Shown here in pieces: positions 6,176 to 34,103 of a stretch of DNA of 39,434 bases. Position numbers and translations under genes: made by a program. The notes beneath the pieces are model-generated. The model searched no databases. It was not told the DNA's origin and saw only the letters and a program-made list of their open reading frames with translations. The stretch lies in IMG/VR virus record IMGVR_UViG_2541047689_000010. The stretch is one strand, 5' to 3'. Position 1 is the stretch's first letter. Each line of letters starts with the position of its first letter. Origin of the DNA: a virus. Its lineage: Duplodnaviria; Heunggongvirae; Uroviricota; Caudoviricetes.

Positions 6176-6192
6176 ATTACCTTTCAGGTAAT
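6176..6192. promoter_or_regulatory. Operator-like dyad ATTACC-N5-GGTAAT (family copy)
   Basis: Perfect inverted repeat read directly; lies just upstream of a candidate promoter for gene 6268-6525. Confidence 0.5.
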
Positions 6193-6572: not shown

Positions 6573-6838
6573 TTTACATCGCACTCCTCTTGTGCCATAG
6601 TAATCGGGCACTGGCAAAATCCAGTGCCGGGATTGGTCTCCCGGATTACTACAGAGGCACATATGCCGCATAAGCGGTTTTTTTATGTGTAAAGCGCACC
6701 TATTCTATGGTGGGCTGTGTGGGGGCACCGAAAGGTGCGCCGGGTTCCTTTGTAGCCGGTAAGACCAACTCTGCACAGTTCACCACCATCTGATTGGTCT
6801 CAGCGGTGGTGATTAACCTAACTACAAAGGTGATCGCC

Positions 6839-8799: not shown

Positions 8800-8811
8800 G
8801 TGACATGTCAC
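8800..8811. repeat. Perfect 12-bp palindrome GTGACATGTCAC, copy 1 of 3
   Basis: Read directly; one nt from the stop codon of 8813-9263 and immediately before the terminator hairpin. Confidence 0.8.
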
Positions 8812-9715: not shown

Positions 9716-12700
9716 CTATTTCATCTGCTCTTCAACTTTATTTAGTAACGGTGATATCGCCCACAGGTTCTGAAAAGGTAGCATTTTACGGACCGCGTGG
9801 GTTTGCTGGCTGTCAAATTCTCCGTTAAGTACACCATTCGCAACCGTCGCGGCATCACCGCCAAGATCAAAGGTAGGACCAAGTAAAGCACCAATAGCAT
9901 TACGACTCTGAAACCTTGATACCGGAGGCGCACCAAACATCGCGCCAAGACCAAACCTACCGCCGCTTATGTTCTCAACGGTATTCAGCGGCTCAGAGAG
10001 CCAGCCAAGCATTCCGCCCCGGTCGATCCCCTCTTTCACAAGGTTATTCCAGCTGTAGTCGATATCGCGACCGCTTAACTTCTGTTTCATCATATAGACC
10101 ATTGAGCCAAGCGCAATCGTGCCAAGCGCACCAAGATAGAATGCAGCATCGCCCTGCTGGATACCAGATACTAGCACCCTGTTATGCTGTGCGAAGATAA
10201 ACGTTTTGAACTGCGTGATCATCTTCCAGCCTTCTTTACTAAAAAACAGCGGTGTATCACCTACGCCAGGCGTTACAATCACTGAGTCTACATCTTTCAG
10301 CACTGCAGACTGGAAAATCTCTCTAGCGAAACGGTCATCCCACAGATGACTATGCCCGGTTAACAGCCCGTCCATATCCTCTCCGTGCTTCCCGAATTGC
10401 TCCCCGATTCGGCGCAGAACATCTTCATTGATGCCGACCTGTGCCATCTTCCGCATTTCACTTTTGGAGAGCGTGCCACCAGCAGAAACTTGGCGAGCCG
10501 CGTCAAGTATCCTCGACTGCACTATCATCCCGGACCATGATTTAAGTGCGCTGTTCCACTGATTCATCAGCGTCCAGTTACCGAATTTCTGCGTCATCCA
10601 GTTCAGACCTCGCTCAGCGGCGCTTCTCCGGCTATAGGGGTCAGTAAGATCCGCTATAGCCTTTGTACGCGTAGACAGGACATAATCAAGCCCAACGGCC
10701 ATTTCTCGCAAATCCCTGGTTGCAATTTTCACTGAGTCCATATTTTTAAGCATGCTTACCATTGGTCCGAGAGATTTTCTCAGGCCATGCTGCATCATCG
10801 GTCGCATCAGATCAGTTGCAGCGGAGACAGTCATTCCACCAAGCAAACGGAGGAAGTTAATATTCCTAGCAACTCGCCCGGCACGAACAAAGAAACTGCG
10901 TGGATCTTGAGGTGCACCGTAAGTACCAAGCAGTCGATCACGCATAGCCGTAATATCCCTAATATCAGCCTCCCGTTGCTTCTCAAGAACTGCACGTCGT
11001 TTAGGTGTTTTAGCCTCTTTTATTAGCCGGGTATATTCCTCACTAACCTGACGGATTTGCTCCCCCATATCTTTACGGCCAAACTGCGCAGTCAGCTCAA
11101 TTTCTGGTGCCACCTGCCGGAGATAACTTTCCATGATGTAGTTAACATCTGATTCAAGAAAATCTTCTATACGCTCATCAGGAATAAGCAGCGTTCTGCT
11201 TTTAGTGAAACCAGCCCGACCAACGAGTCTCTCTGGGATAATATCGGCTGGTACAAGCCCGGAAGGTGCGCCTATTATTTTATTCACGATCTCGTCAGCA
11301 GCGTCCTCTGCTTCCTCTCGGGATAGAGGCTCCATCTGCTTCAGTGCTCGTTCGCGGCTTGCATTCAGCCTTGTGGTTGAATTTGCCCGTTTTTGCAGTC
11401 GGCGAAGCTCAGAACGATATTTCCGTGGATTATCCAGCAACTCCATATGGCGCTGATAGACAGGAAGCTCACTCTTTGCCTGCGCTATATCATCAAGGCG
11501 TGTTTTAAGGTCAGAGCTTTCTTTCATCATTCTTGCCTGAAGTTTTTCTGATGAAGTCTCGGCCAACTCTTTTTCTATTCTTGTAAGACGCGCCTGTGTG
11601 TCAGTCTCCTGAGATATAAGCTTATTTCGTTTATCCAGTTCTTCCATGAGTAGAATTTTTTTACCAGACCATTTCTCCGCTTCAGCGATTTCACTAGCGA
11701 GAGCATCAGCGCGCGGTGCCGATTCCTCTGCAGTTTTTAGCAATGAATTTATCCTTTCAATTCGCTGACCTGCTTTGTCAGCACCTTTGGCACTAATCCC
11801 TTGTATCCAGTTGGCAATTCGCCCTCTGAATTCAGTGCGGTCGGAAAGTATCTTATCGAACTTATAAATGCGGGGAAGATAACTTTTCGCCGTCACGACA
11901 TCGATATCCTCAGGAAGGATCCCCAGTTCCTGCATACGGGCTTTTGTGGTCTCGAAAATGGGGCGGATTCTGGCGGCTGCTTGTGAAACCTCAGGAATAT
12001 CACTCTGATCACCACGGCGCATAGCCATGCCAACAGCTTCATTGAAATCAATAAAGTTCATCCTCTTCACGCCGCGGGCGCTAACAGATTTGCTGTACTG
12101 CTGGTAAGCATCACGAGTGGCTTCCATCTGCTTATAAAGCATGGCGTCGTATTGCTTAATCTTAGTCTCGACTGCCGTAAACGTAGCCAACCCCTCATCA
12201 TTTTTGGCGAAGAAATAGTTATTTTCGGCAAGCTGCTGGTTAATCTGACGGGAGACAAGAGATGGTGATTGAGCCAAGCGGCCAGCAGGAGTGACACTCA
12301 ACGTTTTGTTAGCAAGTCCAAGTCCAGCGAGCTGTTCCTGATCGAGTGTGGTATTGAAAACCTGAGCTGCACCAATGCTTTGAGGAGAATCCATACCTCG
12401 CAAATGATTACCTACTGAGTTAACCACTGCCTCGCGCGCGCTAGGTCCAGCAAGTAGCTGTGCACCAGCACCAAGGATCCCACCAACGAGAGCATCAACA
12501 ACAACGTTCGATACGCTCTCCATCGGTGAGCGAGCTTCCTGAGTGGCCTGTAATGCGGCTTCTGATACTCCCCCACCAGCAGCATTCGCCAGGGCAAAAC
12601 GCCCTGCCGTCTCAGCAATACTTCCTCCACGCGCTACCGCCCCTACAGGGATAAACATTGCAGCCACATTAACCGGGTCTATCATTCCCATTGCTAAGCT

Positions 12701-13105
12701 TGAAATAGTACCAGCACCACCCATTTCAGATAGATATTCTCTATCTGTTCTTTGCTTATCGATTCGATGTTTAATTGCCATTGTTTCTTCATGCGAACCG
12801 GAGTTGATAAACGAATCTGCAAAATCTTCATAGCCTTTAATATCTGCTGCATCGTTATCAAATGGGTTATATCCTTCAACCCTGTCAAACTGACTGAAAG
12901 GAGCACTGGCAATAAAGCTACCCAGCGTGTTATCTATACGAAATGCTGCTTGTCTAGACCTTTGAACGCGTTGATCACTGGTAAATGGGTTCACAGCAGA
13001 AAGCAAAGAAGGTGTTTCCATATAGAAATTACTGTCATCAGGTGCTGCTATTTGCTGAATATCCTCGCCAAGCAACTCTTTAGGATCCTGTTCATATATC
13101 GGCAT
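9716..13105 (-). CDS. Large virion internal/ejection or tail protein (1129 aa) with extended coiled-coil region
   Basis: Size, position in the structural block, long charged helical segment; no tape-measure/sheath/tube set elsewhere, consistent with a podovirus internal core protein. Confidence 0.65.
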   Translation of the reverse strand: MPIYEQDPKELLGEDIQQIAAPDDSNFYMETPSLLSAVNPFTSDQRVQRSRQAAFRIDNTLGSFIASAPFSQFDRVEGYNPFDNDAADIKGYEDFADSFINSGSHEETMAIKHRIDKQRTDREYLSEMGGAGTISSLAMGMIDPVNVAAMFIPVGAVARGGSIAETAGRFALANAAGGGVSEAALQATQEARSPMESVSNVVVDALVGGILGAGAQLLAGPSAREAVVNSVGNHLRGMDSPQSIGAAQVFNTTLDQEQLAGLGLANKTLSVTPAGRLAQSPSLVSRQINQQLAENNYFFAKNDEGLATFTAVETKIKQYDAMLYKQMEATRDAYQQYSKSVSARGVKRMNFIDFNEAVGMAMRRGDQSDIPEVSQAAARIRPIFETTKARMQELGILPEDIDVVTAKSYLPRIYKFDKILSDRTEFRGRIANWIQGISAKGADKAGQRIERINSLLKTAEESAPRADALASEIAEAEKWSGKKILLMEELDKRNKLISQETDTQARLTRIEKELAETSSEKLQARMMKESSDLKTRLDDIAQAKSELPVYQRHMELLDNPRKYRSELRRLQKRANSTTRLNASRERALKQMEPLSREEAEDAADEIVNKIIGAPSGLVPADIIPERLVGRAGFTKSRTLLIPDERIEDFLESDVNYIMESYLRQVAPEIELTAQFGRKDMGEQIRQVSEEYTRLIKEAKTPKRRAVLEKQREADIRDITAMRDRLLGTYGAPQDPRSFFVRAGRVARNINFLRLLGGMTVSAATDLMRPMMQHGLRKSLGPMVSMLKNMDSVKIATRDLREMAVGLDYVLSTRTKAIADLTDPYSRRSAAERGLNWMTQKFGNWTLMNQWNSALKSWSGMIVQSRILDAARQVSAGGTLSKSEMRKMAQVGINEDVLRRIGEQFGKHGEDMDGLLTGHSHLWDDRFAREIFQSAVLKDVDSVIVTPGVGDTPLFFSKEGWKMITQFKTFIFAQHNRVLVSGIQQGDAAFYLGALGTIALGSMVYMMKQKLSGRDIDYSWNNLVKEGIDRGGMLGWLSEPLNTVENISGGRFGLGAMFGAPPVSRFQSRNAIGALLGPTFDLGGDAATVANGVLNGEFDSQQTHAVRKMLPFQNLWAISPLLNKVEEQMK

Positions 13106-15852
13106 TATTTGCCCCCTGCGTATATATTGCTCGGAAGGTAATTGGCTGAACCATAACCGAATGGTTTGGTCAGATCTGGAGGAGTATATCCATCTTTATT
13201 GCTGAACTGCGGCAGCGGATTGCCTTCTCTCCGCACTCTAGCCTCATCAACACGTTGTTGCTGGAACTGAATGGTTTGCCTGTACATTGGAGATGTCAGC
13301 TGATCCGGCTTGAAACGAACAGGGAGACCATTTTCTCCAATATAATTTCTCGGTTCTATCGCTCCGTTTGCGTCAGGCTGTAAAACCATAACAGCATAAC
13401 TCCTATCCCTTGCCGTAAGGCCATCAGAAACAAGTATTAAGTCCGTATCACTGCGAGGACCGCCAAAGGATTTTGATTTAAGCTCGCGTTTTTCCTGCTC
13501 CCACTGCCCCTGTATCCAGTTACCAGCACCATTATTTACTCCGTACAATGCCTCAGGTGCATACTTCATAACCTCTGCTTTGCCATTAACCGTAGAAACT
13601 CCCCAGGTGGTTCTGATCATGGCATTGGTCATTTTCTCAGCCTGTTCTGCATCGCCACCTGTCTGTACAAAGTTAGCATCGTAAATTGTCTGGTAATCTC
13701 GCTGATAGGCCGCATTTGATTTTCCTGGATCGGTAATATCCGGAGACCACGAACCAAAGGAAGTCAGACTGCTGGCGTTATTTTGTGCAGCAGTTGCCCT
13801 CGCCGCGACATATTTTTTGTCTCGCATGGCAGTGGAAAGCATCTGTTTCATTCGGTCATCCTGTTGGAACACCTGGCTGTAAGCCATATCAACAGCCTTA
13901 TCCTCCGGCACGCCAGCGCGGGAATAATCGTAAACCTTGCCGTAAAATGCCATCGTACTTTTATCAAGTGTTGCCGCTGCCGCCGGATTATTATCGAATA
14001 ACTGACCGTAGAATTTTGCCATCGGGACAACCAGCGCAGGATCTCTTGATGTTGCTCCACTGTTAAGCATTGTTTTAACCTGAGTTGGTATCATGCCGCT
14101 TTTAGTTGTGACGGTGACCAGTGTATTGATGCTCTGCGGATCAGATATGGAAAACGAAGGCGCGATATCCTGCGCGAAATAACGGTCTACCGCTGCCTGA
14201 TTGTTTTTGTCGTTCGGGTCCAGCGGGAAGTTATTTTGCATTGAAGACACGAACCTGTTTCTTCCCTGCTGAATCTCCCACTCCCTATCCATCTCTTTAA
14301 ATTTGGCCTGCATTTTCTCCCAGCGTTGCTGGTTAGCTGCAAATCCAGGAGCGTTTGGATCCTGTGGACGTAAACGTTCAAGAATGTCTTGTCGTCCTTC
14401 TGGAGTGAGGTCTTTAGCGGCACCAATGACACCTCCATATTGTATCTGCGCCTGCATATCCTTCCACTTCATAGCGCCAATGCGCGGACCATTGGCCCGG
14501 ATAAAATCGTCCTCAGAAGGTAACTTCTCAGGTTTCAATCCTTCATCAAGGGCTGAATATGCATCTTTAACTACGGTGCTAAGCTGGTCCGCATACTGCT
14601 GGCGGTACTGATTTCTCAGCTCATTAGCCTGCCTCAATGCCTGTATTTGCATTTGAGGGCTCATAGCATCAAATGCCGCATTGCCCGTATAACGCTTAGG
14701 TGAATCAAGGTTAGTTAGACCAAGGGCTGCCGAGATACCAGTTTCAAGCTGTTCGGTGCTATAAGGCATACTGCCATTTTCGTGTTTAATAATCCCAGCA
14801 CATAAAGCAGCTAGTGTCTTTGGGTTAGAGATATCAAGCTGATCATTCTCCCCAACACCAAGCTCACCACACAATTCCCTAATATAAGCATCAGTATTAT
14901 TACCATCACTAGCCGGAGCATAGCGATTAACAATCTCGCTAACGGTGTCATAGCCTTGACGCTGGTAAGACAACATATTTTTACCCAACGCGCGGATTCC
15001 ATGCTCAGGGGTAGCAAACGTTGCAAAACGTCCATCGCTACCGATCTGACCTTCCCACGGGTTAGATTTGCTCGCTTCAATATTACCAGGGTTATTATTA
15101 CGTAAACCACGAGCATCCAATGAATTACCATGTGATATTGCACGACTCACACCATCAAGATCCCCTGGCTCTCCATTAACCTGAAGAAACTCGTTGTATT
15201 TTTGAGCGATATTTCCTATCCATGCTTGCTGCCCCATTTGTTCCTTGAGCTGAGTTTTCTGCTGAACACGCCACTCATCAGGAAGCCCATGCGCATCAGC
15301 GTATTGATCAATAGATTCAAATCGCTGCTTGGCTAAATCGACAAATGCTTGGTTATCGCTATATAGCCCCGCAGACTGAGTGACAGCCAATGCATTTCCT
15401 GACAAATACGTTTGATCTTGGAATTGCTGAAACTGCCCAACTTCATATCGACGTGCCTGATTGTAATAAGACTGCATAGACTGCTGGAGTTGAAAGGATA
15501 ATTTATTCCTTTCCTCACTTTCAGGAATTGAGCCTAATAATGCCTGAGCCCTTTCCTGCATATTTTTCATAACAGCGTCACTCTGACCAAGAGCGTTTTT
15601 ACCCTGTTTAGAAATCAGCCCACTTTCAGGGTTGTTAATCTGGTCATCTGCAAATTGGTTAAATTGCAGTAACGCCTCCTGGGCCATAGCAACATTCGCT
15701 TTCTGCCTGGCTTCACCATATGCCACCGCATACTGATCTGCGACATTCGCCAGCACCTGACCTGCTTGAGGAACATCGAAGATCTGAAAACCACCGGTTT
15801 GCACACCACGACTTTGCACCTGGCGTCCGGATGTAGTAGGAACAACAGGCAT
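13105..15852 (-). CDS. Large virion internal/ejection protein (915 aa)
   Basis: Position and size; Q/N-rich; tightly packed with neighbours (shared boundary nucleotide). Confidence 0.65.
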   Translation of the reverse strand: MPVVPTTSGRQVQSRGVQTGGFQIFDVPQAGQVLANVADQYAVAYGEARQKANVAMAQEALLQFNQFADDQINNPESGLISKQGKNALGQSDAVMKNMQERAQALLGSIPESEERNKLSFQLQQSMQSYYNQARRYEVGQFQQFQDQTYLSGNALAVTQSAGLYSDNQAFVDLAKQRFESIDQYADAHGLPDEWRVQQKTQLKEQMGQQAWIGNIAQKYNEFLQVNGEPGDLDGVSRAISHGNSLDARGLRNNNPGNIEASKSNPWEGQIGSDGRFATFATPEHGIRALGKNMLSYQRQGYDTVSEIVNRYAPASDGNNTDAYIRELCGELGVGENDQLDISNPKTLAALCAGIIKHENGSMPYSTEQLETGISAALGLTNLDSPKRYTGNAAFDAMSPQMQIQALRQANELRNQYRQQYADQLSTVVKDAYSALDEGLKPEKLPSEDDFIRANGPRIGAMKWKDMQAQIQYGGVIGAAKDLTPEGRQDILERLRPQDPNAPGFAANQQRWEKMQAKFKEMDREWEIQQGRNRFVSSMQNNFPLDPNDKNNQAAVDRYFAQDIAPSFSISDPQSINTLVTVTTKSGMIPTQVKTMLNSGATSRDPALVVPMAKFYGQLFDNNPAAAATLDKSTMAFYGKVYDYSRAGVPEDKAVDMAYSQVFQQDDRMKQMLSTAMRDKKYVAARATAAQNNASSLTSFGSWSPDITDPGKSNAAYQRDYQTIYDANFVQTGGDAEQAEKMTNAMIRTTWGVSTVNGKAEVMKYAPEALYGVNNGAGNWIQGQWEQEKRELKSKSFGGPRSDTDLILVSDGLTARDRSYAVMVLQPDANGAIEPRNYIGENGLPVRFKPDQLTSPMYRQTIQFQQQRVDEARVRREGNPLPQFSNKDGYTPPDLTKPFGYGSANYLPSNIYAGGK

Positions 15853-20686: not shown

Positions 20687-21124
20687 TTAACCAGTTACTT
20701 TTGAGCGGATCGGATACGGCGTATTGGCATCAACATCAAGACTGATACCAGCAGTGAATTCGCCAGCCGTTAGTGGGCCAGTTGCGACGGAGTAGTTAAC
20801 ACGCAGATATCGCTGAACACCGGCAGGCACCTTTGCAGAAACAACTCGTTTACCTGCTGTCATGGCGGTCTTTGCCAGTGCGCCACTATCATAAATAGTG
20901 GTCCATGAGCTGTTATTCTCACTCGTCTGCAACTGGATGTTTACAGTTGCATCACCGCTTGCCGCGGCGGCTGTGTTAACCAGCGCCCAAAACTCAAGCG
21001 GGTAACCCACGCCGATATCACGACGTTTTCCGTCAATTGGACCGAGATCGATTACGTCAGTAGAAGCCGCGGTATTCGTAACCGCCTGAGCTTCGGAGAA
21101 CATCAACAGTTTGTCGGTGATCAT
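20687..21124 (-). CDS. Putative capsid decoration/accessory protein (145 aa)
   Basis: Immediately downstream of major capsid gene; Ala/Thr/Val-rich beta-type composition. Confidence 0.5.
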   Translation of the reverse strand: MITDKLLMFSEAQAVTNTAASTDVIDLGPIDGKRRDIGVGYPLEFWALVNTAAAASGDATVNIQLQTSENNSSWTTIYDSGALAKTAMTAGKRVVSAKVPAGVQRYLRVNYSVATGPLTAGEFTAGISLDVDANTPYPIRSKVTG

Positions 21125-21175
21125 CTTCTTTCTCCATTAGTGGGTCTGTTACGATCCACAGGTTAATAACAGGCG

Positions 21176-22168
21176 TTACACCACGCGGGCTTCTGTTTCC
21201 AGAAGCGCATCAGTTTCACGGATTGGTACACCACGGAATGAAGTCCACCACTCGCCTTCTGTCTCTTTTACGCTGATCGCCAGAGATGTTTTCTCCAGAG
21301 ATTGCAGATCAAGAGCCTGGCCTACAGTGCGGTTCATGTAGAACACCGGGCGACCCATGCCACGATTTGGAATGCGATGCAGTGCTTTAACCATCAACTT
21401 CGCAATATTTGCGGCAGAGGAAGGTTCTGAAAGATTGCTGACATCGATGTTTGCAATGCGAACAACATAACGCCAGTCACGCAGAGCAAGTCCGTTGTCC
21501 CATTTGTAATGGGTACGGTAGCCTTCGTACTTGCCGCCATTCGCATCTTCCAGTGTCACCTGGCCTTTATCTTCCATCTGGATGCCAGCCTTCTGCCCTT
21601 TCGGGAAGATGCCATGCACGGTGTTTTCGCCCCACACCACTAACCAGATTGAGGTGTTATCTGTACCCGTGCCACCAGCATCAATGATGTTCTGAGCATT
21701 ACCCGCAGACAGGCTGGAATAGCGGGAGGACAGTCCCATAAACTGCTGAGGGTTAACGCTGGAATCACCATAAAACAACGTCTGCGCCATCTGCTGATTC
21801 ATCGCTTCAATAAATGCGCGGTCTTCAGACAGGCGGAATTCGGCGGTATTACCGTTCAGATCAGCCAGTGACTTATCGACTTCAGCATAGGTTTCCAGCA
21901 TTCCAACGGAATCGGTGACCTGCACTGTGGTTGATTTGCTTGGCTGTACGCCATAGTTCAGCAAACGCCAGGTGGCCGAAGGTAAACCAGAACGAATGGT
22001 GGTTCGGTGTCCGGTAGGAAGGTTCCCTTCGACAAAAGGCATATCCTGAAGGATCGGGTTAGTTTGACCGAGAAGCTCGATAATCTTATCGACTTTCCCG
22101 TTTGGATCGACGCGCTTACCCCAGTCAGCCAGCGTTAGCGCAGTTAAGCCTTTAACAGCCATTGTCAT
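21176..22168 (-). CDS. Major capsid protein
   Basis: 330 aa, directly after scaffold gene and before decoration-like gene; size and order typical of HK97-fold capsid proteins. Confidence 0.7.
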   Translation of the reverse strand: MTMAVKGLTALTLADWGKRVDPNGKVDKIIELLGQTNPILQDMPFVEGNLPTGHRTTIRSGLPSATWRLLNYGVQPSKSTTVQVTDSVGMLETYAEVDKSLADLNGNTAEFRLSEDRAFIEAMNQQMAQTLFYGDSSVNPQQFMGLSSRYSSLSAGNAQNIIDAGGTGTDNTSIWLVVWGENTVHGIFPKGQKAGIQMEDKGQVTLEDANGGKYEGYRTHYKWDNGLALRDWRYVVRIANIDVSNLSEPSSAANIAKLMVKALHRIPNRGMGRPVFYMNRTVGQALDLQSLEKTSLAISVKETEGEWWTSFRGVPIRETDALLETEARVV

Positions 22169-22176
22169 TTCCTCTC

Positions 22177-22872
22177 TTATTTGCCATAGAGCACTTCGGC
22201 CGCACTACGCTGGCCTTCATTACCACCGGTGACCATGCCATCTTCAGACATCGCCTTTCCGATTTTCACGAACGTTTTGACCAGATCAGGGTGATTACCC
22301 AGCCCGGTGGTGTTCAGATATTCTTTGAGCTCAGGTGTCCCGAACTGGTCAAGCGCACGCTGTGCGGCGCTAAGGTTAGAAATCAACTTGTCGCCACCGA
22401 TTTCTTTGTCAGCTTTTACATCCGCAGCCCACTGCTCGGTTGTTTTCTGCCAGGCTTCTGCCTGGCGCTGCTGAACACCTGCCAGAATCTTCGGATAAGC
22501 ATCAACCAGCTTTTGCGCTTGCTCGTTGGTCAGGTTAAGTCCTCGCGCCACAGGCTCGAATTCCTTCAACGCTTCTGTATCCAGCTCTACGCCTTCGGCA
22601 GCCTGAAACTCGTACTTCTCAGGCGCACCCTCTGGTTTATTGCCGTCCTTTTTTTCATCCTGCTTATCGTTTTCAGGCTTTTTGTCATCAGCAGGTTTAT
22701 CGCCATCAGCAACAGGTTGTGGCTTATCACCTTCCTGTTGTGATGGATCACCAACTGGAGCATGGTTATCACCTGCAGGCGCTGATGGTTCTGACGCAGC
22801 CGGAGCTGCTCCACCATCGACTGGTTGCTCATTGCAAAGACGGCGATACAGCAAACGCTCAAATAAATTCAT
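22177..22872 (-). CDS. Scaffolding protein
   Basis: Start at ATG (MNLFERL...) with AGGAG SD; acidic, Pro/Ala/Lys/Asp-rich low-complexity N-terminal region and helical C-terminus; between portal and capsid. Confidence 0.6.
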   Translation of the reverse strand: MNLFERLLYRRLCNEQPVDGGAAPAASEPSAPAGDNHAPVGDPSQQEGDKPQPVADGDKPADDKKPENDKQDEKKDGNKPEGAPEKYEFQAAEGVELDTEALKEFEPVARGLNLTNEQAQKLVDAYPKILAGVQQRQAEAWQKTTEQWAADVKADKEIGGDKLISNLSAAQRALDQFGTPELKEYLNTTGLGNHPDLVKTFVKIGKAMSEDGMVTGGNEGQRSAAEVLYGK

Positions 22873-22874
22873 GA

Positions 22875-23171
22875 TCACTCCTGTTCACTGGCCTCTTTGG
22901 CCATCTTCAAATACTGTTCAGGGCAATGCGCCATAACGCGCTGAAACAGTTCCAGCGCCAGATTGCGTTGCCCCTCATTAAATGCCATTGCCATAGCGTC
23001 CATCGGTGAGATAGCGGAAAACACACGGCCTTTCTCCAGCACCGACCAGACAACGCGACGCCCCTGTTCACTGCTCATGACAAAGCGAATGTCATCAATT
23101 TCACGCTGCGCCATGTCACGTTGCTTACGGGCGTTTTCTTCTTTCAGTTGATCGTCTTCGTAATCTGTCAT
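22875..23171 (-). CDS. Small head-associated protein (98 aa)
   Basis: Overlaps portal stop by 4 nt; charged helical. Confidence 0.5.
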   Translation of the reverse strand: MTDYEDDQLKEENARKQRDMAQREIDDIRFVMSSEQGRRVVWSVLEKGRVFSAISPMDAMAMAFNEGQRNLALELFQRVMAHCPEQYLKMAKEASEQE

Positions 23172-24847
23172 TGTGATTGCCCACCCTGACCACTAACTGC
23201 ATTCGCCATAGCTGACAAAACACTCGGATCCGAAGTTTTAGCTTCGCTTAGCGTCTTGGCACCCTGTGCCGCCGCCATCCCCATCGCCATCATTTGTTGC
23301 TGCTGTTGCTGCTGTGCCCGTTGCTGGCGAGCCTGCTCAACCTGTTCCTGCGGAACAATGACGGTTGGAGACACTCCGGACATATCAGCGAATGCATCGA
23401 TCGCCTGATCAACGTTGAGTTTGTCGAGAGCTTCTGGTTTCGCTTGCGCAAGTTGACCAATGAAGTTAACCGTGGACGCCAGACTGGACAGGCCGATAGA
23501 CTTCTGCGCCTGAGCCATGACGGAAATGTATTCGACCTTCAGGGGCATACCTTCCATCGCGTCAGGCGGTGGCGGCAGCATGTTTTTACGCACCATCATC
23601 GAGAAAGCGCGGTCAATGAGAGGGTTAAGACATTCGTCGTTCAGACGCTCCAGAACCGGCCCCAACATCAGAAGTTTTTCTTCTTTCATTTCGATCACCG
23701 CTTCAACAGGCATCGAGCGGGTATTGATGTTCTGCAACATCATGAACAGATCGACAAAGTAGGCGCTGTTAATGATTTGACGAGTGTCCTGAATGTCTGC
23801 TACCAGATCTGCTGTACTGGGGTTAACCAGATAAGCAGGCCTGAAACCATCCTGACCAGTAATCTGATCGATATACGTGATGTCGCCAGGAAGAAGGGAG
23901 GCGCGCTGATTCTTGAGGGAAGTCGGAGCAACCATCGGCGGATTGGTGGCTTTATCAATCAACTGCGACTTGCGCTTCTGGAGAAGCTGCAATGCCTTAA
24001 CAGGTCCAAGCGCCAGCATACCCGGGCATGATGATCCATAAACATCTTCGCCATTAACTTCCCAGCGCGGAGCCATAATTGGAAACTCATCAAATCCGGA
24101 CTCACGCAACAACTTGTCGTTATCGCCACCAACCTCGTAATAAACCGATTTGAATGGCTTGTTCTTGCTATCCAGCTTCGATGTATCGCGGTCAATGTTC
24201 GGGTAAACCGAATGCATCACGTCAATCCACTTCTCGTAGGTGCCGCTTTCCCACATGCTTTTTACGGATTCGCTGACGTTATTTAGCCCGAACTCCTGAA
24301 CAAGCTGACGAACAGTCATAGAGAACTTGCGAAAACAGGTGTCCACACTGCCACGAGGTGAGTTAGCCAGGTAGTAACTGCCTATCGGGAATGGCATTGT
24401 GCGAATGATGTCCTCGTCATCCTCCAGCACCGCCATTGCACCAGTGCTGTATGTGCCGAGGCTTCCGTATAACTGCGGAAGAGACTGGTAGAGATTCGAC
24501 TTATTGAACATATCGTTCATGCGGTTCTGCACCGCCTCAAGCCACAACTTAACAGGGCCATAATCCATCATTTCAGGATCTGGCGTAGCCAGGCGAAACC
24601 ACGGACGCGCGGGGCTTGTGATGCCTGACATCATGCCGCTGGCGAGAGTGCGCGCCGCCATAGTCCCGGTCGAATCAATAATGCGTGTATTGCGTCGATC
24701 GTTACGGTTGACCTCAGAAGTCAGAAAGCGGGAACCACGCGGGTTGATGTAATCACTCAACTCGCGCCAGTGCGGCTCGAACGACTGACGCTCGCTTTCA
24801 AGTTGTGCGAACTGTTTGTTCAATCGCTCTTTAGTTGTTTCCGCCAT
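23168..24847 (-). CDS. Portal (head-tail connector) protein
   Basis: 559 aa; position after terminase; Gln-rich C-terminal tail (QQRAQQQQQQQMMAMGMAAAQGAK) typical of podovirus portals. Confidence 0.8.
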   Translation of the reverse strand: MAETTKERLNKQFAQLESERQSFEPHWRELSDYINPRGSRFLTSEVNRNDRRNTRIIDSTGTMAARTLASGMMSGITSPARPWFRLATPDPEMMDYGPVKLWLEAVQNRMNDMFNKSNLYQSLPQLYGSLGTYSTGAMAVLEDDEDIIRTMPFPIGSYYLANSPRGSVDTCFRKFSMTVRQLVQEFGLNNVSESVKSMWESGTYEKWIDVMHSVYPNIDRDTSKLDSKNKPFKSVYYEVGGDNDKLLRESGFDEFPIMAPRWEVNGEDVYGSSCPGMLALGPVKALQLLQKRKSQLIDKATNPPMVAPTSLKNQRASLLPGDITYIDQITGQDGFRPAYLVNPSTADLVADIQDTRQIINSAYFVDLFMMLQNINTRSMPVEAVIEMKEEKLLMLGPVLERLNDECLNPLIDRAFSMMVRKNMLPPPPDAMEGMPLKVEYISVMAQAQKSIGLSSLASTVNFIGQLAQAKPEALDKLNVDQAIDAFADMSGVSPTVIVPQEQVEQARQQRAQQQQQQQMMAMGMAAAQGAKTLSEAKTSDPSVLSAMANAVSGQGGQSQ

Positions 24848-24861
24848 TTCAATGACTCCGG

Positions 24862-25068
24862 TTACTGACCAAGCAGCGTTTTACCGCTGGTATTAGCGGT
24901 TGATGTGTCGCCCTGAGAACCGGTAAGCAGCGTAGAACTACGACCAGCAGCAGCGCGACGGCGACGAGTTTCTTCGTCTCGGGCATCAACAACGGCGGAA
25001 TCCTGCTCCTGTGGTGCTGCCTGAACTTCTGGTGTTGCAGGCACTGATGGTGAGCTACCCATGCACAT
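24862..25068 (-). CDS. Possible small protein upstream of portal (frame uncertain)
   Basis: Two overlapping short ORFs in the track; chosen frame has a more protein-like hydrophilic composition. Weak. Confidence 0.3.
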   Translation of the reverse strand: MCMGSSPSVPATPEVQAAPQEQDSAVVDARDEETRRRRAAAGRSSTLLTGSQGDTSTANTSGKTLLGQ

Positions 25069-25157
25069 ATCAATGACTCCGTACGCAATTAAATTATTAC
25101 CAATTTAACCACATATGATTTATTTATCGTAGGCAGTTGACATTTAACGCGCGAATT

Positions 25158-25174
25158 ATTACCCTTCGGGTAAC
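25158..25174. promoter_or_regulatory. Operator-like dyad ATTACC-N5-GGTAAC next to a TTGACA hexamer (25137-25142)
   Basis: Read directly; upstream of tRNA/moron module. Confidence 0.5.
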
Positions 25175-25495
25175 AAAAAAGTTCATTCCGGTTACTAACC
25201 TGACTGGCTTGTCGTTAAATTGAACAGGTGGAGTGAGCTTTTATTTTGAGCAGTACGGCGTATGGCACATGCGACGATAGCGGTCTGGATACGTTTAAGG
25301 GGCACCCTACCTTGCTCGGGCAAACGAACCAGGTAGCCGGAATGTGCAAGTCGAGCGGTTTTATTCCGCGCACGGGGATTCACCATCCCGGCGATTCGGT
25401 GTGACGCCTCGGAAGAGACGAGGGTACAACGATGAGAGCATTTATGGAGCCGCGACAAAGTGTGGCGCCTTAACAGGCTAAGTGCTCTCAGCGTT

Positions 25496-25572
25496 GTGGC
25501 ATTAGCTCAGTTGGACAGAGCAACCGCCTTCTAAGCGGTTGGTCGCAGGTTCGAATCCTGCATGCCACACCA
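25496..25572 (+). tRNA. tRNA-Arg (anticodon UCU, reads AGA)
   Basis: Manual cloverleaf: acceptor GTGGCAT/ATGCCAC, D-arm GCTC...GAGC, anticodon stem ACCGC/GCGGT with loop CTTCTAA, T-arm GCAGG-TTCGAAT-CCTGC, discriminator A and encoded CCA. Confidence 0.8.
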
Positions 25573-25770
25573 GAATCACGCCTAAGGACCGTGATGCCAG
25601 AAGTTCCAGGGGCTTGGCGGTGATGGTTTCCCTTGAAGGACTATCACCGCCCTTTTTACAGCAGGACGCCATTGCGATGACTTCATGCTGTAAACCCGTA
25701 CAGCCACGGAAGGCATAACTCATTGCTTCCAGTTCGCCCGGTTCGCCGGGCATTTTTTTAAGGTGAGATT

Positions 25771-26127
25771 ATGAACGACCAGCAAATCGAAAAAGAAATC
25801 GTTGAGAAAGGCAAAACCGCTCCGCGAGTTACGCCTCAATATATCGAAAGCATCATTCTTGAAGAGCATTTCTTTACTGCTTATGACGGCATTCGTGCTG
25901 CCAATATGGGCGTTGGCGATTCATGGACAGCGCATAAATCTACAGACCTCCTGACTTTCTGCGTATTGGTACTGAAGAATGGCTTCACCGTCACCGGAGA
26001 GAGTGCCTGTGCAAGTCCGGAAAATTTTGATGCAGAAATTGGTCGGAAGATTGCCCGGCAGAATGCTGTAAACAAAATCTGGATGCTCGAAGGTTACTTG
26101 CTGAAGCAGAAGTTAAGCGAGCAATAA
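25771..26127 (+). CDS. Small conserved prophage protein (118 aa), unknown function; moron co-oriented with the tRNA
   Basis: ATG with SD AAGGTGAG; followed by palindrome copy 2 and an intrinsic terminator. Confidence 0.55.
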   Translation: MNDQQIEKEIVEKGKTAPRVTPQYIESIILEEHFFTAYDGIRAANMGVGDSWTAHKSTDLLTFCVLVLKNGFTVTGESACASPENFDAEIGRKIARQNAVNKIWMLEGYLLKQKLSEQ

Positions 26128-26131
26128 CACC

Positions 26132-26143
26132 GTGACATGTCAC
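26132..26143. repeat. Perfect 12-bp palindrome GTGACATGTCAC, copy 2 of 3
   Basis: Read directly; 4 nt after the stop of 25771-26127 and 4 nt before the terminator stem. Confidence 0.8.
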
Positions 26144-26147
26144 AAAC

Positions 26148-26174
26148 AGCCAGCCGATGAGCTGGCTTTGTTTT
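26148..26174 (+). terminator. Intrinsic terminator
   Basis: AGCCAGC-cgatga-GCTGGCT followed by TTGTTTT. Confidence 0.65.
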
Positions 26175-26217
26175 ATCCTCACCAGAGGATATCAACGACA
26201 TTATCCCCACCAGCGGA

Positions 26218-27693
26218 TTAAGCATAGGGATCGTAATCTGTGATGGCCTTGCCTTGCTGGTTCTGCTGACCGGGAATTCGCAGACGCTTCGACACAGGGA
26301 ACGCAAACGTCAGCAGTAGCGCATCGCCTTTACCAGGAGAACGCCCAAGCCGCTCTTTGATATCTTCCTTCGGTTCGATAACGATTTTACCGTCCACTCG
26401 AACTTTGTACTCTGCCGCCGACAGGTCGTCCGCTGTTTCATGGTCATCCAGCATGCCGCCAAGCCTCAGCCATGTCTTGCATGAGTTGAACATCTCCCCA
26501 CGCTTGTTGAGCATCTGCGGGTCAGTAGACGCGCCACCGAACGGAACAAGTTGCCATGTACGACCCCAGCCGTCACCGATTGACTTCAAACCGGTTCCGT
26601 AACCAAAGTCGATGAACACCGCGTCAGCCTGATACTGGTCTTCAAAGTCAGCGATACGCTTCGCCATAATCAGATCGTCGGTAGTCTTGTTTCCAGTCCA
26701 CAGCACCTTACTGTGTAGCCCCTGCCGCAGGTATATCACAGCGTCATCAACGCCGGAGTATGCCGGGTCAACGCCGATTATCACCGGAGCATGTGCAACC
26801 TGCGCAGCGGTTACCACCCGTTTTATTGCCTCGTCAGTAAGACCGGTAGGGATAAACTGCAATTCAGATGCATCAGGGAATATGCCACGCACACGGATTT
26901 TAACGAAGTCGCTGTCTTCCCCGTAGTCATCAACCCATTTCTGCAACTGCTGTTTGTTGGTACCTTCCACCGTCCGACTGTCAATCTGCGCAGTTTTCCA
27001 GCGGTGTTTATACTTGCGGAAACATTCACGGAAACGTCCGGTATTACGCGTCGGGTTTCCGAACGCCACCCAGATAATCTCAGTGTCTTCGTCCGTTAGC
27101 GCACCCTCGGCAACTTCCCACACCAGATCCGCAATGTTCGACGCTTCATCGAATACCACGATGATGCGTTTGCGCTCATTGTGTAATCCGGCGAATGCCT
27201 CAGTGTTGTGCTCAGACCAGGGGATTGCGTCAGCTCGCCACCGCTTGTCGTGCCCAGGGTCATTGCTGTACATCGCGGTAGCGGTACAGGTAAACCAGTC
27301 TTTCGTGATAGCAAGGTTCGACCACTTGATAATTTCCGGCCAAGTCTTCGTTCGTAGCTGGTTGTCGGTGTTGGCGGTCACCACGACCTTACAATCCTCG
27401 CAAGTGGACATGCCCCAGTTGATCAGCATTGAGATGAATGCGGATTTACCAATACCGTGACCAGAAGCGCGTGCCAGCATAAGCGGCTGATAGCGCGTCT
27501 CTGGATTCTGCAGGTGATCACGTATCTCTCGGAACGCATCAGCCTGCCACTGACGTGGGCCGGTGGCATGTGCCAGTTCAGTCCCCTCTTCCCCCCACGG
27601 GAACGCATAGAGGGCATAGCCAAGCGGATCGTGAGTGAACCCTGCAATATCTTCGATTAACTGCTCTTCAGGAGATAACACTGCATCTGTCAC
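26218..27693 (-). CDS. Terminase large subunit
   Basis: 491 aa; Walker A-like GHGIGKS; acidic Walker B-like IIVVFDEASN; nuclease-type C-terminal half; overlaps small-subunit gene. Confidence 0.85.
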   Translation of the reverse strand: MTDAVLSPEEQLIEDIAGFTHDPLGYALYAFPWGEEGTELAHATGPRQWQADAFREIRDHLQNPETRYQPLMLARASGHGIGKSAFISMLINWGMSTCEDCKVVVTANTDNQLRTKTWPEIIKWSNLAITKDWFTCTATAMYSNDPGHDKRWRADAIPWSEHNTEAFAGLHNERKRIIVVFDEASNIADLVWEVAEGALTDEDTEIIWVAFGNPTRNTGRFRECFRKYKHRWKTAQIDSRTVEGTNKQQLQKWVDDYGEDSDFVKIRVRGIFPDASELQFIPTGLTDEAIKRVVTAAQVAHAPVIIGVDPAYSGVDDAVIYLRQGLHSKVLWTGNKTTDDLIMAKRIADFEDQYQADAVFIDFGYGTGLKSIGDGWGRTWQLVPFGGASTDPQMLNKRGEMFNSCKTWLRLGGMLDDHETADDLSAAEYKVRVDGKIVIEPKEDIKERLGRSPGKGDALLLTFAFPVSKRLRIPGQQNQQGKAITDYDPYA

Positions 27694-28286
27694 TGATTAC
27701 CATCCTGACGTTCTTTGAGTCGCTTCCTGGCTGCCGCTATGCGATCAGCAATTGTCACATTCACATTAACATCCAGGCGCTCTTTGAACGCGTTGACGTC
27801 GACGTGCTTACCGATAAGCTCGAGGTTCTTCACCTTGTCAGGCCATTTAATTTTTTTGAGGATTGTCTCTATCGAATCCTCGTTCATGTTCATGATGGTC
27901 GATGACAGATCAAAGCCGCTAAGCGTAGTGCGCCAGATTTTCGGCCACTCGCGGATTGGCTTAAGGCTCCCATCGTCGTTGAGGATGTCGATCACGTCCA
28001 TCTGGTCGATCTCCACCAGGCGCATGAGAACGTAATCAGCACTGACGCGCATTCGTTTGTTGCGCTCCTCCATCAGCTCGGCAATCCGTTTTTGAATGCG
28101 TTCATCGCGCATCATGACACTGGCTTTAACTGCCGCTGTATTTGGGGAGAATCCTGCGTTAATCGCTGCCTGAGTCTGGTTTTCAGGCGTTTTGATGTAT
28201 GACTGGCAATAAGCCTCCTGCATTGCTGTTAGTGGCTTAAATTGCGTTGATTTGCGTTTATAGGTTTTAGGTTCAGCAGGCATCAT
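27690..28286 (-). CDS. Putative terminase small subunit
   Basis: Directly upstream of and overlapping the large terminase; start set at internal ATG because the longer track ORF would include an intrinsic terminator hairpin. Confidence 0.5.
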   Translation of the reverse strand: MMPAEPKTYKRKSTQFKPLTAMQEAYCQSYIKTPENQTQAAINAGFSPNTAAVKASVMMRDERIQKRIAELMEERNKRMRVSADYVLMRLVEIDQMDVIDILNDDGSLKPIREWPKIWRTTLSGFDLSSTIMNMNEDSIETILKKIKWPDKVKNLELIGKHVDVNAFKERLDVNVNVTIADRIAAARKRLKERQDGNQ

Positions 28287-28328
28287 AACCACCGTGGTAA
28301 TAGTTACCGTTGTGGTAATAGTACCATG

Positions 28329-28355
28329 CAAAATAAAGCCGCCATAGTTGGCGGC
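28329..28355 (-). terminator. Intrinsic terminator (minus strand) separating the early cluster from the packaging/late genes
   Basis: Minus-strand GCCGCC-AACTAT-GGCGGC followed by TTTATTTTG. Confidence 0.55.
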
Positions 28356-28396
28356 AGTATTCAAAACCCATCAAATTCATCATGCATAATCTACTC

Positions 28397-28408
28397 GTGA
28401 CATGTCAC
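28397..28408. repeat. Perfect 12-bp palindrome GTGACATGTCAC, copy 3 of 3
   Basis: Read directly; overlaps the TGA stop of 28405-28743. Confidence 0.8.
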
Positions 28409-33518: not shown

Positions 33519-34103
33519 ATGAAAAGTATCCAGGACGTCCGCAGGCAAAATCTCAACGACTTGATCGACCGTGAATTCAATGGTGTTCAGACGCGGATGG
33601 CAGAAAAACTTGGAACTCAGGCAAATCTGGTAAACCGCTGGGCTCTTGGCAAGAAGGTTATCGGCGACCAGGTTGCGCGAAAAATTGAAGCTGCCGCCAA
33701 TAAACCCCGTAACTGGCTTGATATCGATCGCTCGCTTTCTCAGGAAGGTTTTCAGCCTGTCGGCCCAAGCGACATTGGTCAGCTGGCGGCTCACAACCTG
33801 GAACGCTGGATGAGCGAAAGCCGCGACCTTTCAACGCAGGGAAAACTTCACCGCGCATCCGGCGTCGCCCAGGTGACAATCAGTCGCCTGTTAAACAATG
33901 AGGTCAGCGTTTCCATTTCCACCCTGGAGAATGTTGCATCCGCATTCGGGCGTCACGGATATGAACTACTGATTCACCCGCACGACCCTGCGACTATCAA
34001 CTATGACCGCTCGCGCTACGCATTGTTACCCGAAACCGAGAAAGCAAAGATCGAAAGTTACATTGAATTTGTCATCAACCAGAACGAAAAAAGCAAACAA
34101 TAA
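33519..34103 (+). CDS. Prophage repressor (CI-like) with two helix-turn-helix domains and no LexA-type (S24) autocleavage domain
   Basis: 194 aa; two HTH-like segments (...QTRMAEKLGTQANLVNRWALGKK... and ...LHRASGVAQVTISRLLNNEV...); no Ala-Gly/Ser-Lys peptidase motifs seen; divergent from cro-like gene; followed by a strong terminator. Confidence 0.65.
   Translation: MKSIQDVRRQNLNDLIDREFNGVQTRMAEKLGTQANLVNRWALGKKVIGDQVARKIEAAANKPRNWLDIDRSLSQEGFQPVGPSDIGQLAAHNLERWMSESRDLSTQGKLHRASGVAQVTISRLLNNEVSVSISTLENVASAFGRHGYELLIHPHDPATINYDRSRYALLPETEKAKIESYIEFVINQNEKSKQ

Follow-up and report, generated by a model that had tools for sequence, protein, structure and literature searches.

Known Phage RNAs and the Analyzed Locus

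The T4 species 1 and 2 RNAs, GOLLD, and ROOL are structured non-coding phage-borne RNAs linked to tRNA genes; to our knowledge, none of them has an established function. Here, another structured phage RNA located next to a tRNA gene is described. It was found in the IMG/VR viral record IMGVR_UViG_2541047689_000010 (39,434 nt; this whole stretch is herein referred to as the window, and all positions given without a locus name refer to it), on the plus strand between the large terminase and portal genes. Its conserved part, herein referred to as the core (25254-25426), is followed by a long hairpin (P6), a slot occupied by a gene for tRNA-Arg, a small trailer hairpin, and an intrinsic terminator (t1). 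Unlike in the T4, GOLLD, and ROOL systems, with which it shares no sequence or model similarity and from which it differs in size and host range, the tRNA is here embedded in the RNA gene itself, with P6 on its 5' side and the trailer hairpin and terminator on its 3' side. No match to the GOLLD and ROOL Rfam models was found in the window.

The C4 RNAs of phages P1 and P7 and the CI RNA of P4 (clan CL00128) are phage leader RNAs excised by RNase P from longer early transcripts. They differ from the core in being antisense RNAs of 70-90 nt with defined complementary targets, and no match to this group (RF01695 and relatives) was found in 24850-26250 at E-values up to 10. At 6608-6790 of the window (plus strand), adjacent matches to isrK (74.7 bits) and to C4 antisense RNA (78.6 bits, 6703-6790) constitute an RNA pair of the P1 immI-like type within a Uetakevirus prophage; operator dyads at 6177, 6557, and 7598 lie on either side of it.

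The put RNAs are about 70 nt long and contain two stem-loops, and the layout of putL has been described for HK022 (PMC9378689). The lambdoid copies of the core resemble HK022 putL and putR and the putL-like RNA of HK639: all are cis-encoded structured RNAs of lambdoid phages without N, located just after early promoters and followed by terminators. This layout fits the window only loosely and the P1 copies not at all. The core is also larger (150-180 nt, with two pseudoknots, one of them a candidate, against about 70 nt for put and an annotated 126 nt for the putL-like RNA of HK639), and its module carries a conserved terminator of its own and occurs also where there is little to antiterminate. 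The covariance model of the core, R1, has no match in the HK022 immunity region or in HK639; its best score in the HK639 locus, 5.3 bits, is not at putL. Nor do the copies contain a lambda-type nut site: a strict boxA was found in only 2 of 114 loci, P6 offers only UGCUCU, and no arginine-rich N-like open reading frame (ORF) was seen downstream, including downstream of the lambdoid copies.

The only RNA in the literature found that touches this locus is sRNA-17, a 193-nt RNA of Escherichia coli K1 RS218 that is encoded in an mEp460-type prophage and was mapped by 5'/3' RACE (rapid amplification of cDNA ends) and Northern blot (PMC7719688; Sun et al., 2020). Its sequence is that of the mEp460 locus L005 at 2738-2930, from the first base after P6 to the terminator of the unit, so that a discrete RNA between these two points has been demonstrated by others in a lambdoid homologue. 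Consisting of a slot module and the terminator, sRNA-17 occupies the position of the tRNA-Arg, the trailer hairpin, and t1 of the window. It shows that the strand is transcribed and that termination takes place at this terminator in vivo in the lambdoid homologue (PMC7719688). There is no homology to the window, from which the diagnostic strings of sRNA-17 are absent; sRNA-17 is not a tRNA according to ARAGORN and has no Rfam match. In the original publication, the upstream core DNA is treated as a promoter region, and the core and P6 are not described (PMC7719688). Deletion of sRNA-17 raised the expression of the downstream genes yfdP and yfdR (PMC7719688), which fits the loss of a terminator and is explained equally well by readthrough from the inserted resistance cassette.

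As in a classical moron or a phage tRNA-Arg gene, the plus-strand unit of the window has its own promoter and terminators, is inserted between conserved genes, and is variably present among relatives. A preliminary description of the locus, made from its sequence, presented it as a single self-contained moron. This was not borne out: the unit is a mosaic of separately exchangeable modules, in which block 25089-25759 is kept, the ORF downstream varies, and epsilon15 lacks most of the core and the tRNA. Thus, the unit is an RNA gene plus a separate cargo cassette, in contrast to a single protein-coding moron. The pair of tRNA-Arg and Gp49-family genes is real, routine, and already annotated in relatives; the novelty lies in the leader. 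No paper describing the core was found in the literature on put, AgvB, Pas sRNAs, a genome-language-model survey of non-coding RNAs, or lambdoid tRNA-like RNAs, and an earlier description elsewhere is possible.

A Conserved Pseudoknotted RNA Core

The core is matched by R1 over the full length of the model (138.8 bits, E = 3e-40). Its fold was derived from a 24-sequence alignment (A2), R1 was built on this fold, and pair statistics were collected from 94 R1 hits representing 77 distinct sequences. The core begins with helix P1 (25256-25263 with 25269-25276), whose pair 7:19 occurs as G-C (47 sequences) and as A-U (28 sequences). Helix P2 follows (25280-25287 with 25330-25337); its apical part is variable, and its pair 33:88 is C-G in 41 sequences and U-A in 35. 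P3 is a variable hairpin at approximately 25352-25370. All four pairs of P4 (25375-25378 with 25386-25389) covary, and P5 (25407-25411 with 25419-25423) has the loop GAAGAGA. Pseudoknot PK2 connects CACC in the P4 loop (25381-25384) with GGUG at 25398-25401; one of its pairs covaries, pair 142:162 being C-G in 53 sequences and A-U in 17. A candidate second pseudoknot, PK1, would connect GCAC in the P1 loop (25265-25268) with GUGC at 25344-25347, both invariant across the sequences. The core also carries long invariant unpaired stretches, namely GGUAGCCGGAAUGUGCAAG and GGCGAU..GGUGUGAC.

Across the 94 hits, standard pairs fill 98.1% of the cells, against 24-45% when the 3' partners are slid by one to three columns. 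Changes on both sides were found for 12 pairs (208 cells), and the covariation score was equalled by none of 500 shuffles. The alignment was fitted to the model, which favors the structure; an independent column-pair scan found the same pairs. Since G-U pairs, which the opposite strand is unable to form, are frequent in the core helices, the plus strand is the RNA strand. RNAalifold proposed a long-range GCACAU/AUGUGC pairing that competes with the local helix P1. It was set aside, and P1 retained, because pair 7:19 covaries.

The leader contains ORFs of 87, 52, and 45 aa. Among the 77 distinct homologues, the variability by codon position is 0.241/0.277/0.242, with no periodicity, and the core lengths fall into all three residues modulo 3 (34/30/13); therefore, neither the sense nor the antisense leader ORFs are considered genes. 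This agrees with the preliminary description, in which the leader was said to hold no convincing ORF. Its suggestion that the leader could be an unannotated small RNA was right in spirit, and its alternative, a mere processed tRNA precursor, was not, since the core is an independent RNA family that occurs mostly without a tRNA in lambdoid and P1-like phages. The covariance-model search it had proposed gave no Rfam family for the leader (in a scan of the window, in 24850-26250 at E-values up to 10, and in the mEp460 copy); the conserved pseudoknotted fold came from the alignment of homologues. Thus, the core is a new, previously unannotated phage RNA family with an established, covariation-supported fold.

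Distribution and Genomic Settings of the Core

The window itself is a phiV10/epsilon15-like (Uetakevirus) E. coli prophage, as judged from the 96-99% identity of the region to phiV10, O157 typing phages 9 and 10, vB_EcoP_ZX5, and many E. coli prophages. More distant matches to the region were found in Salmonella phages SPN1S, SPN9TCW, and epsilon15. A sensitive DNA search with 25089-25500 found that 25255-25499 is 77-83% identical to non-coding DNA of unrelated phages. These are lambdoid phages (mEp460, cdtI, Stx2c, and Stx2a_WGPS2) and P1-type phages (P1, P7, D6, RCS47, and SJ46). Shorter sub-stretches were matched in Klebsiella phage SopranoGao (77%), Stenotrophomonas phages BUCT708 and BUCT709 (75%), and mEp390 (76%).

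The invariant 17-mer GTAGCCGGAATGTGCAA was found in at least 120 IMG/VR contigs. A second pattern combined with the covariance model added 23 loci from genome assemblies, most of them labelled Kosakonia, Phytobacter, Citrobacter, Klebsiella, Enterobacter, Kluyvera, Erwinia, or Escherichia. The R1 searches covered loci fetched by such exact-word patterns. Of 5426 complete E. coli genomes, 1839, or approximately one third, carry the core, which is annotated in none of them. R1 gave no more than 12 bits to pattern matches in Acidovorax, Steroidobacteraceae, Pirellulaceae, and Clostridia, which resemble chance occurrences within GC-rich DNA. An R1 match of 164.7 bits on a 1.7-kb contig of a "Bacillota" metagenome-assembled genome probably reflects mis-binning.

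The neighboring ORFs were clustered for 139 distinct loci. In the largest group (65 loci, mEp460 type), the core lies 163 nt downstream of the gene for a 230-aa cI-like repressor, on the same strand, and upstream of YfdQ/YfdR-like early-left genes. Approximately 34 Uetakevirus loci have the core in the gap between the large terminase and portal genes, and 12 P1-like loci have it upstream of ban. Several smaller groups represent other lambdoid immunity types, with the core in the early-left leader. The core is always oriented with the operon, and the downstream genes are unrelated among the three settings. In P1, a tRNA gene (trnI, annotated as tRNA-Ile; anticodon CAT according to ARAGORN) ends 13 nt before the core, and the core lies about 95 nt before ban. 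In mEp460, a promoter is located about 50 nt upstream of the core; it is considered to be pL/oL because its operator TTGCATAATGCGCAA matches TTGCTTAACGCGCAA of the cro-cI intergenic region (TTGC-N7-GCGCAA).

Some loci contain additional elements. The viral contig L025 has two full cores about 650 nt apart (3997-4154 and 4804-4959, both on the minus strand), the first of them followed by the 5' arm of P6 and then an AT-rich insertion. Further downstream in L063, L073, L143, and L102, there is another P5-like hairpin, followed by the start of a P6. These arrangements suggest that modules of the unit can be repeated. A sub-threshold DicF-like match (24.5 bits) lies at 4098-4150 of L102 (plus strand), about 450 nt downstream of the core, and a dicF-like region is annotated alongside the core in the ban operon of P1 (P1 record 68791-68892). 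The core thus tends to occur in RNA-gene clusters within early operons. In addition, 47-nt matches to positions 172-218 of a small-subunit rRNA model (RF02542; 37-38 bits, E about 1e-7) were found at 3971-4017 of L102 (plus strand) and 1953-1999 of L098 (minus strand).

Modules Downstream of the Core

The order of modules downstream of P5 was read in approximately 90 distinct loci. The common order is core, P6, slot, small conserved hairpin, and intrinsic terminator. In the window, P6 (25427-25497, plus strand) has the conserved base CAACGAUGAGAGCAUU ... AGUGCUCUCAGCGUUG, its arms (25426-25444 and 25479-25497) are 89% complementary, and its 3' end overlaps the first bases of the tRNA. The base of P6 shows the compensatory variants GAGAGCA/UGCUCUC, GAGAGUA/UACUCUC, and AAGCGCA/UGCGCUC. 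The apical part is an exchangeable cassette, and the cassette types are common to unrelated phages; that of the window was also found in mEp460 and in a Klebsiella prophage, and some cassettes bear T-arm-like GGUUCGAUUCC hairpins. A predicted fold of 25427-25660 (z = -4.85) contains P6, the cloverleaf, the hairpin, and t1.

The slot contains tRNA-Arg in Uetakeviruses; most lambdoid copies have a domain there that is not a tRNA and is closed by GUUGUGGUG ... CACCACAAC, and the slot of a Stenotrophomonas phage is empty. By eye, some variants of the lambdoid domain have a 7-bp acceptor-like stem and a GGUUCGAnUCC hairpin. This tRNA-like appearance was not confirmed: no sub-threshold tRNA match was found in the lambdoid slot of five loci tested (E-values up to 1), nor did ARAGORN call a tRNA in the mEp460 locus.

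The trailer hairpin of the window (25575-25595, plus strand; AUCACG-CCUAAGGAC-CGUGAU) was also found after P6 or P7 in lambdoid and Stenotrophomonas copies and is missing from the mEp460-type copies. Terminator t1 (25616-25658, plus strand; hairpin 25616-25651) consists of a 14-bp stem followed by CUUUUU, has compensatory stem changes among relatives, and is where the RNA unit is predicted to end. A conserved hairpin and an intrinsic terminator were found in the unit in Uetakeviruses, several lambdoid lineages, and a Stenotrophomonas phage. On average, 1.30 terminator-like hairpins per 900 nt occur downstream of the core, against a background of 0.41, and at least one was found in 83 of 106 loci.

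Downstream of t1, a conserved stretch (25659-25758, plus strand) contains hairpins at 25655-25694 and approximately 25711-25733 and the second terminator, t2 (25736-25751, plus strand), which is followed by a run of seven T. A match to the RyhB model at 25705-25759, ending at t2, reached 18.1 bits (E = 2.4), against a gathering score of 55. The 12-mer shared with RyhB, CAUUGCUUCCAG, forms one arm of a hairpin whose sequence differs in relatives such as L024, so that the hairpin probably has a structural role and mimicry of RyhB is unlikely.

tRNA-Arg and Codon Usage

The preliminary description had reported a cloverleaf tRNA reading AGA. It was borne out by ARAGORN, which found a tRNA-Arg with anticodon UCU at 25496-25572 (plus strand) and no other tRNA in the window, and by Rfam (RF00005, 74.6 bits, E = 1e-14, gathering score 29). 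The 3' CCA is encoded, and the acceptor stem starts inside the last bases of P6. A tRNA-Arg is annotated at the same position in typing phages 9 and 10, phiv142-3, SPN9TCW, SPC32H/N, and RefSeq E. coli prophages.

The ORFs of the window use 8.4 AGA and 6.7 AGG per 1000 codons. The average AGA and AGG usage of E. coli is several-fold below these values, and codon supplementation by the phage tRNA, as had been proposed for rare AGA, is therefore plausible. However, AGA is absent from the adjoining head, portal, and terminase genes (20687-28364) and is concentrated in the ORF at 3316-6072 (20 AGA) and in large ORFs at 9716-15852. The former ORF (minus strand, 918 aa), by far the most AGA-rich gene of the window, has 20 AGA and 10 AGG among its 49 arginine codons and, to judge by codon content, is the likeliest beneficiary.

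Promoter, Operator Dyads, and 5' Leader

The promoter-like site and operator of the unit occupy 25137-25173 (plus strand). They include a -35 hexamer TTGACA (25137-25142), a 17-nt spacer, a weak -10 hexamer TACCCT (25160-25165), and the dyad TTACCCTTCGGGTAA (25159-25173), which overlaps the -10 hexamer. Dyads of this type (TTACC-N5-GGTAA) were found in 11 copies in the window, at 6177, 6557, 7598, 25159, 28304, 31080, 31142, 33401, 33449, 34161, and 34223, against 0.69 expected. They look like a dispersed, P1-like operator regulon. In epsilon15, the annotators labelled the homologous site a repressor binding site, and the promoter of the unit is very probably repressor-controlled. Thus, the hexamer with an operator dyad noted earlier was confirmed. 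Several of the dyads are paired at distances of 48-62 nt (31080/31142, 33401/33449, and 34161/34223); two such pairs flank a 194-aa ORF at 33519-34103, which may be the repressor gene.

The 5' leader between the promoter and the core (25174-25253, plus strand) is lineage-specific and is not kept in the Salmonella or lambdoid copies. Its segment CAUUCCGGUUAC (25184-25195) is complementary at 11 of 12 positions to the invariant core segment GUAGCCGGAAUG (25333-25344; inverted repeat I9). The minimum-free-energy and centroid folds both use this pairing, which might represent an alternative structure that disrupts the core; the Salmonella and lambdoid copies do not share it. The leader also holds GGAGUGAGCUU, which resembles the 3' arm of a P6-type hairpin.

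Proposed Mechanism and Alternative Explanations

We tentatively favor, at somewhat less than even confidence, the explanation that the unit is a mobile RNA gene composed of the core, P6, a slot that accepts a tRNA or a tRNA-like module, a hairpin, and a terminator, the transcript of which is processed at the tRNA. Under this model, 25137-25658 would correspond to an RNA gene that is under repressor control, spreads horizontally, and has acquired a functional tRNA by insertion. Transcription would start at about 25172, downstream of the operator-overlapped promoter, and polymerase would then cross the lineage-specific leader, the double-pseudoknot core, and P6, followed by tRNA-Arg(UCU) and the small conserved hairpin, and stop at t1 (about 25658). 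RNase P cleavage at the 5' end of the tRNA (25496) and normal 3' trimming would free the tRNA, which would supplement the decoding of the many AGA codons of the phage. A stable 5' RNA of about 320 nt, consisting of the leader, core, and P6, would be left over, and its core would bind a conserved host or phage macromolecule instead of pairing with mRNAs. Such a partner is most likely because conservation is concentrated in a core with a tertiary fold and invariant unpaired stretches, not in a linear seed.

The mobile RNA gene is supported by the occurrence of the same core at non-homologous positions in three phage types, as expected of an autonomous module. Each of the three settings has a tRNA or a mapped RNA end adjoining the core or P6 (tRNA-Arg in the window, the P1 tRNA, and the 5' end of sRNA-17), and such "tRNA punctuation" would release a discrete RNA. 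Further points in favor are the plus-strand fold with no coding signature, the terminator that the module includes in most lineages, the repeated operator, the AGA usage of the window, the new operator-controlled promoter found directly after t2 in some relatives, and epsilon15, which has lost most of the core and the tRNA and yet retains the promoter, t2, and the cargo gene. Several observations weigh against this explanation. Since the P1-type copies have the core alone, without P6, the trailer hairpin, or a nearby terminator, an RNA gene with its own terminator is not valid for every copy. According to the authors of the sRNA-17 study, transcription of this RNA begins at the mapped 5' end from a dedicated promoter under ArcA regulation, and the end is not a product of processing (PMC7719688). 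The promoter of the window was not called by a consensus promoter scan because its -10 hexamer matches only 3 of 6 consensus positions. The Shine-Dalgarno sequence of the cargo gene abuts t2 without a recognizable promoter in this E. coli lineage. Finally, the unit separates pL from the early-left genes in lambdoid prophages, where no N-like gene is visible.

The last observation bears on a different role for the core, that of a cis-acting, put-like elongation-control RNA that stays with RNA polymerase, maybe together with Nus factors, for readthrough of terminators or Rho sites. Its targets would be t1 and t2 ahead of the Gp49-family gene in the window and the terminators before the early-left genes in lambdoids. 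This role is favored by the fact that lambdoid transcription must somehow pass the terminator of the unit: the core lies downstream of pL (about 50 nt in mEp460), terminators precede the first early-left gene, no N-like arginine-rich protein is visible downstream, the core is always oriented with the operon, and the layout is that of HK022 putL (PMC9378689) and of the annotated putL-like RNA of HK639. Canonical boxA UGCUCUUUAACAA is found right after P5 in two variants, a boxA-like AGCUCUUUAAUAA in the truncated copy L031, and UGCUCU in the 3' arm of P6; in addition, the Shine-Dalgarno sequence of the cargo gene adjoins t2 with no visible promoter in this lineage. However, epsilon15 retains t2 and the cargo gene without most of the core, some relatives have a new operator and promoter after t2, and almost nothing is available for antitermination at the Uetakevirus position. 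The terminator within the module is conserved, and the 3' end of sRNA-17 reflects termination there in vivo (PMC7719688); the P1 copies are located mid-operon with no terminators nearby, and a strict boxA is rare. As R1 finds nothing in HK022 or HK639, with which no similarity in sequence or structure is shared, an antiterminator here would be a convergence in role and not a member of the put family. Overall, we consider antitermination, the main rival of the mobile RNA gene, unlikely. Slightly less doubtful, though still on the unlikely side, is an undescribed class of complex-fold phage RNA, with the leader as its first example, comprising the double-pseudoknot core, a cassette hairpin, and a slot for tRNAs, tRNA-like domains, or sRNAs. 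In it, the slot module would be excised and the core would reprogram a conserved host machine early in infection or in the lysogen, the candidate targets being elongating RNA polymerase, RNase P, and a tRNA-directed defense nuclease. Such a phage effector, made of RNA alone, would be of a new type and widespread in E. coli, in Shiga-toxin phages, and in P1.

The remaining explanations have lower probability. A riboswitch-like sensor, in which binding of a metabolite, an ion, or a tRNA to the core would adjust early transcription or the downstream processing of RNA, would account for the compact pseudoknotted fold, the long invariant unpaired segments, and the 5' leader position, and the T-loop-like GGUUCGAUUCC hairpins of some P6 inserts could contact the tRNA elbow. 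It is nevertheless improbable, given that no expression platform overlaps the core, that the first terminator comes about 190 nt after P5 and beyond the whole tRNA, that the downstream genes are unrelated across the three settings, and that the P1 copies have nothing after P5. Conservation within E. coli Uetakeviruses says little because the whole block is 96-99% identical there, and taken alone it would be compatible with a plain tRNA precursor leader or spacer conserved by recent common descent. The covariation and the distribution independent of tRNAs already contradict this explanation, which we regard as very improbable: in lambdoid, P1-like, Klebsiella, and Stenotrophomonas phages, most of them without an adjacent tRNA, the core is 65-85% identical with compensatory changes. 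Equally remote is a small protein, such as that of the 87-aa minus-strand ORF at 25195-25458, or a protein binding site at the DNA level. One minus-strand frame is stop-free in 67 of 77 distinct cores, and the annotators of mEp460 and phiV10 called ORFs in the region; against this, the codon-position values show no third-position excess, the core lengths are spread over all residues modulo 3, and the compensatory changes and many G-U pairs point to a plus-strand RNA. The codon-position variability and the length spread rule out a coding reading of the antisense ORFs. The annotated hypothetical ORF phiV10p04 of phiV10 is merely the antisense of the tRNA.

Flanking Genes, Cargo Gene, and the epsilon15 Deletion

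The location of the plus-strand unit between minus-strand genes was confirmed by the ORF list and Pfam: it is flanked by the large terminase gene (26218-27693, minus strand) and the portal gene (23168-24847, minus strand; Head-tail_con, E = 1.8e-187), with a 68-aa ORF at 24862-25068 (minus strand) next to the latter. The order of elements in the unit is promoter and operator, about 320 nt of non-coding DNA, tRNA-Arg(UCU), t1, t2, Gp49-family gene, and a third terminator, t3. In RefSeq, the gap between the terminase and portal genes is annotated solely with "tRNA-Arg" and "Gp49 family protein". Every element listed in the preliminary description was found at or near the place assigned to it. 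Late transcription had been said to pass necessarily through the unit in antisense. A terminator scan found no terminator-like site on the minus strand across the unit, which makes such passage reasonable, and late transcripts probably do cross it; the absence of sites is observed, and the crossing itself we infer.

The 118-aa protein gene noted earlier (25771-26127, plus strand) was identified as a Gp49-family gene (Phage_gp49_66, PF13876; 118.6 bits, cut-off 27, E = 1.7e-34). Its Shine-Dalgarno sequence AAGGUGAG, directly after t2, precedes it within the stretch 25760-26127. Among relatives, block 25089-25759 is kept as a unit, and t2 is followed by one of two Gp49 types, by other ORFs, or by a new operator and promoter; by this comparison, the stretch through t2, the Shine-Dalgarno sequence, and the Gp49-family gene appears to be a separate swappable cargo module. 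The palindrome copy and terminator behind the gene were found as well. The palindrome GTGACATGTCAC lies at 26132-26143 (exact match), and t3, called on the plus strand by the scan, lies at 26148-26167 and is followed by UUGUUUU; together with t1 (25616-25651) and t2 (25736-25751), it completes the terminators found on this strand. Element 26132-26175 with t3 is located between the convergent ends of the Gp49-family and large terminase genes, and the annotators of phiV10 assigned t3 to the terminase strand. The window contains three exact copies of GTGACATGTCAC (8800-8811, 26132-26143, and 28397-28408; 0.12 expected), all of them in short gaps where a gene ends: in two cases the flanking genes converge, and the third copy immediately precedes the small terminase gene. 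The palindrome may serve as a regulator binding site or belong to bidirectional terminators.

In the viable phage epsilon15, most of the core and the tRNA are deleted, while the promoter, t2, and the cargo gene are retained; the core and tRNA are therefore accessory. The deletion (L008, 1794-1883) cleanly joins the loop of P2 to the loop of t1, between copies of the loop motif UUCCCUUGAUGCU. In the Salmonella lineage, the 13-nt motif through which the deletion arose, TTCCCTTGATGCT, occurs in the loops of both P2 and t1 (compare L003, SPN9TCW). It is pyrimidine-rich and anti-Shine-Dalgarno-like and is present in two loops of one transcript.

Significance

A structured RNA with two pseudoknots, one of them a candidate, has been overlooked in approximately one third of complete E. 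coli genomes, as well as in P1, the textbook phage of transduction, and in Stx2a and Stx2c converting phages. This RNA is a common part of the early and immunity regions of temperate phages. The R1 covariance model is suitable for submission to Rfam, and several "hypothetical protein" annotations are exposed as spurious. Moreover, sRNA-17, which is tied to the virulence of E. coli K1, is recast as one module of a larger, probably processed transcript. If the core controls elongation, it would explain how the early-left operons of many lambdoid prophages are expressed without N. If it acts in trans, it would represent a new phage effector consisting of RNA only.

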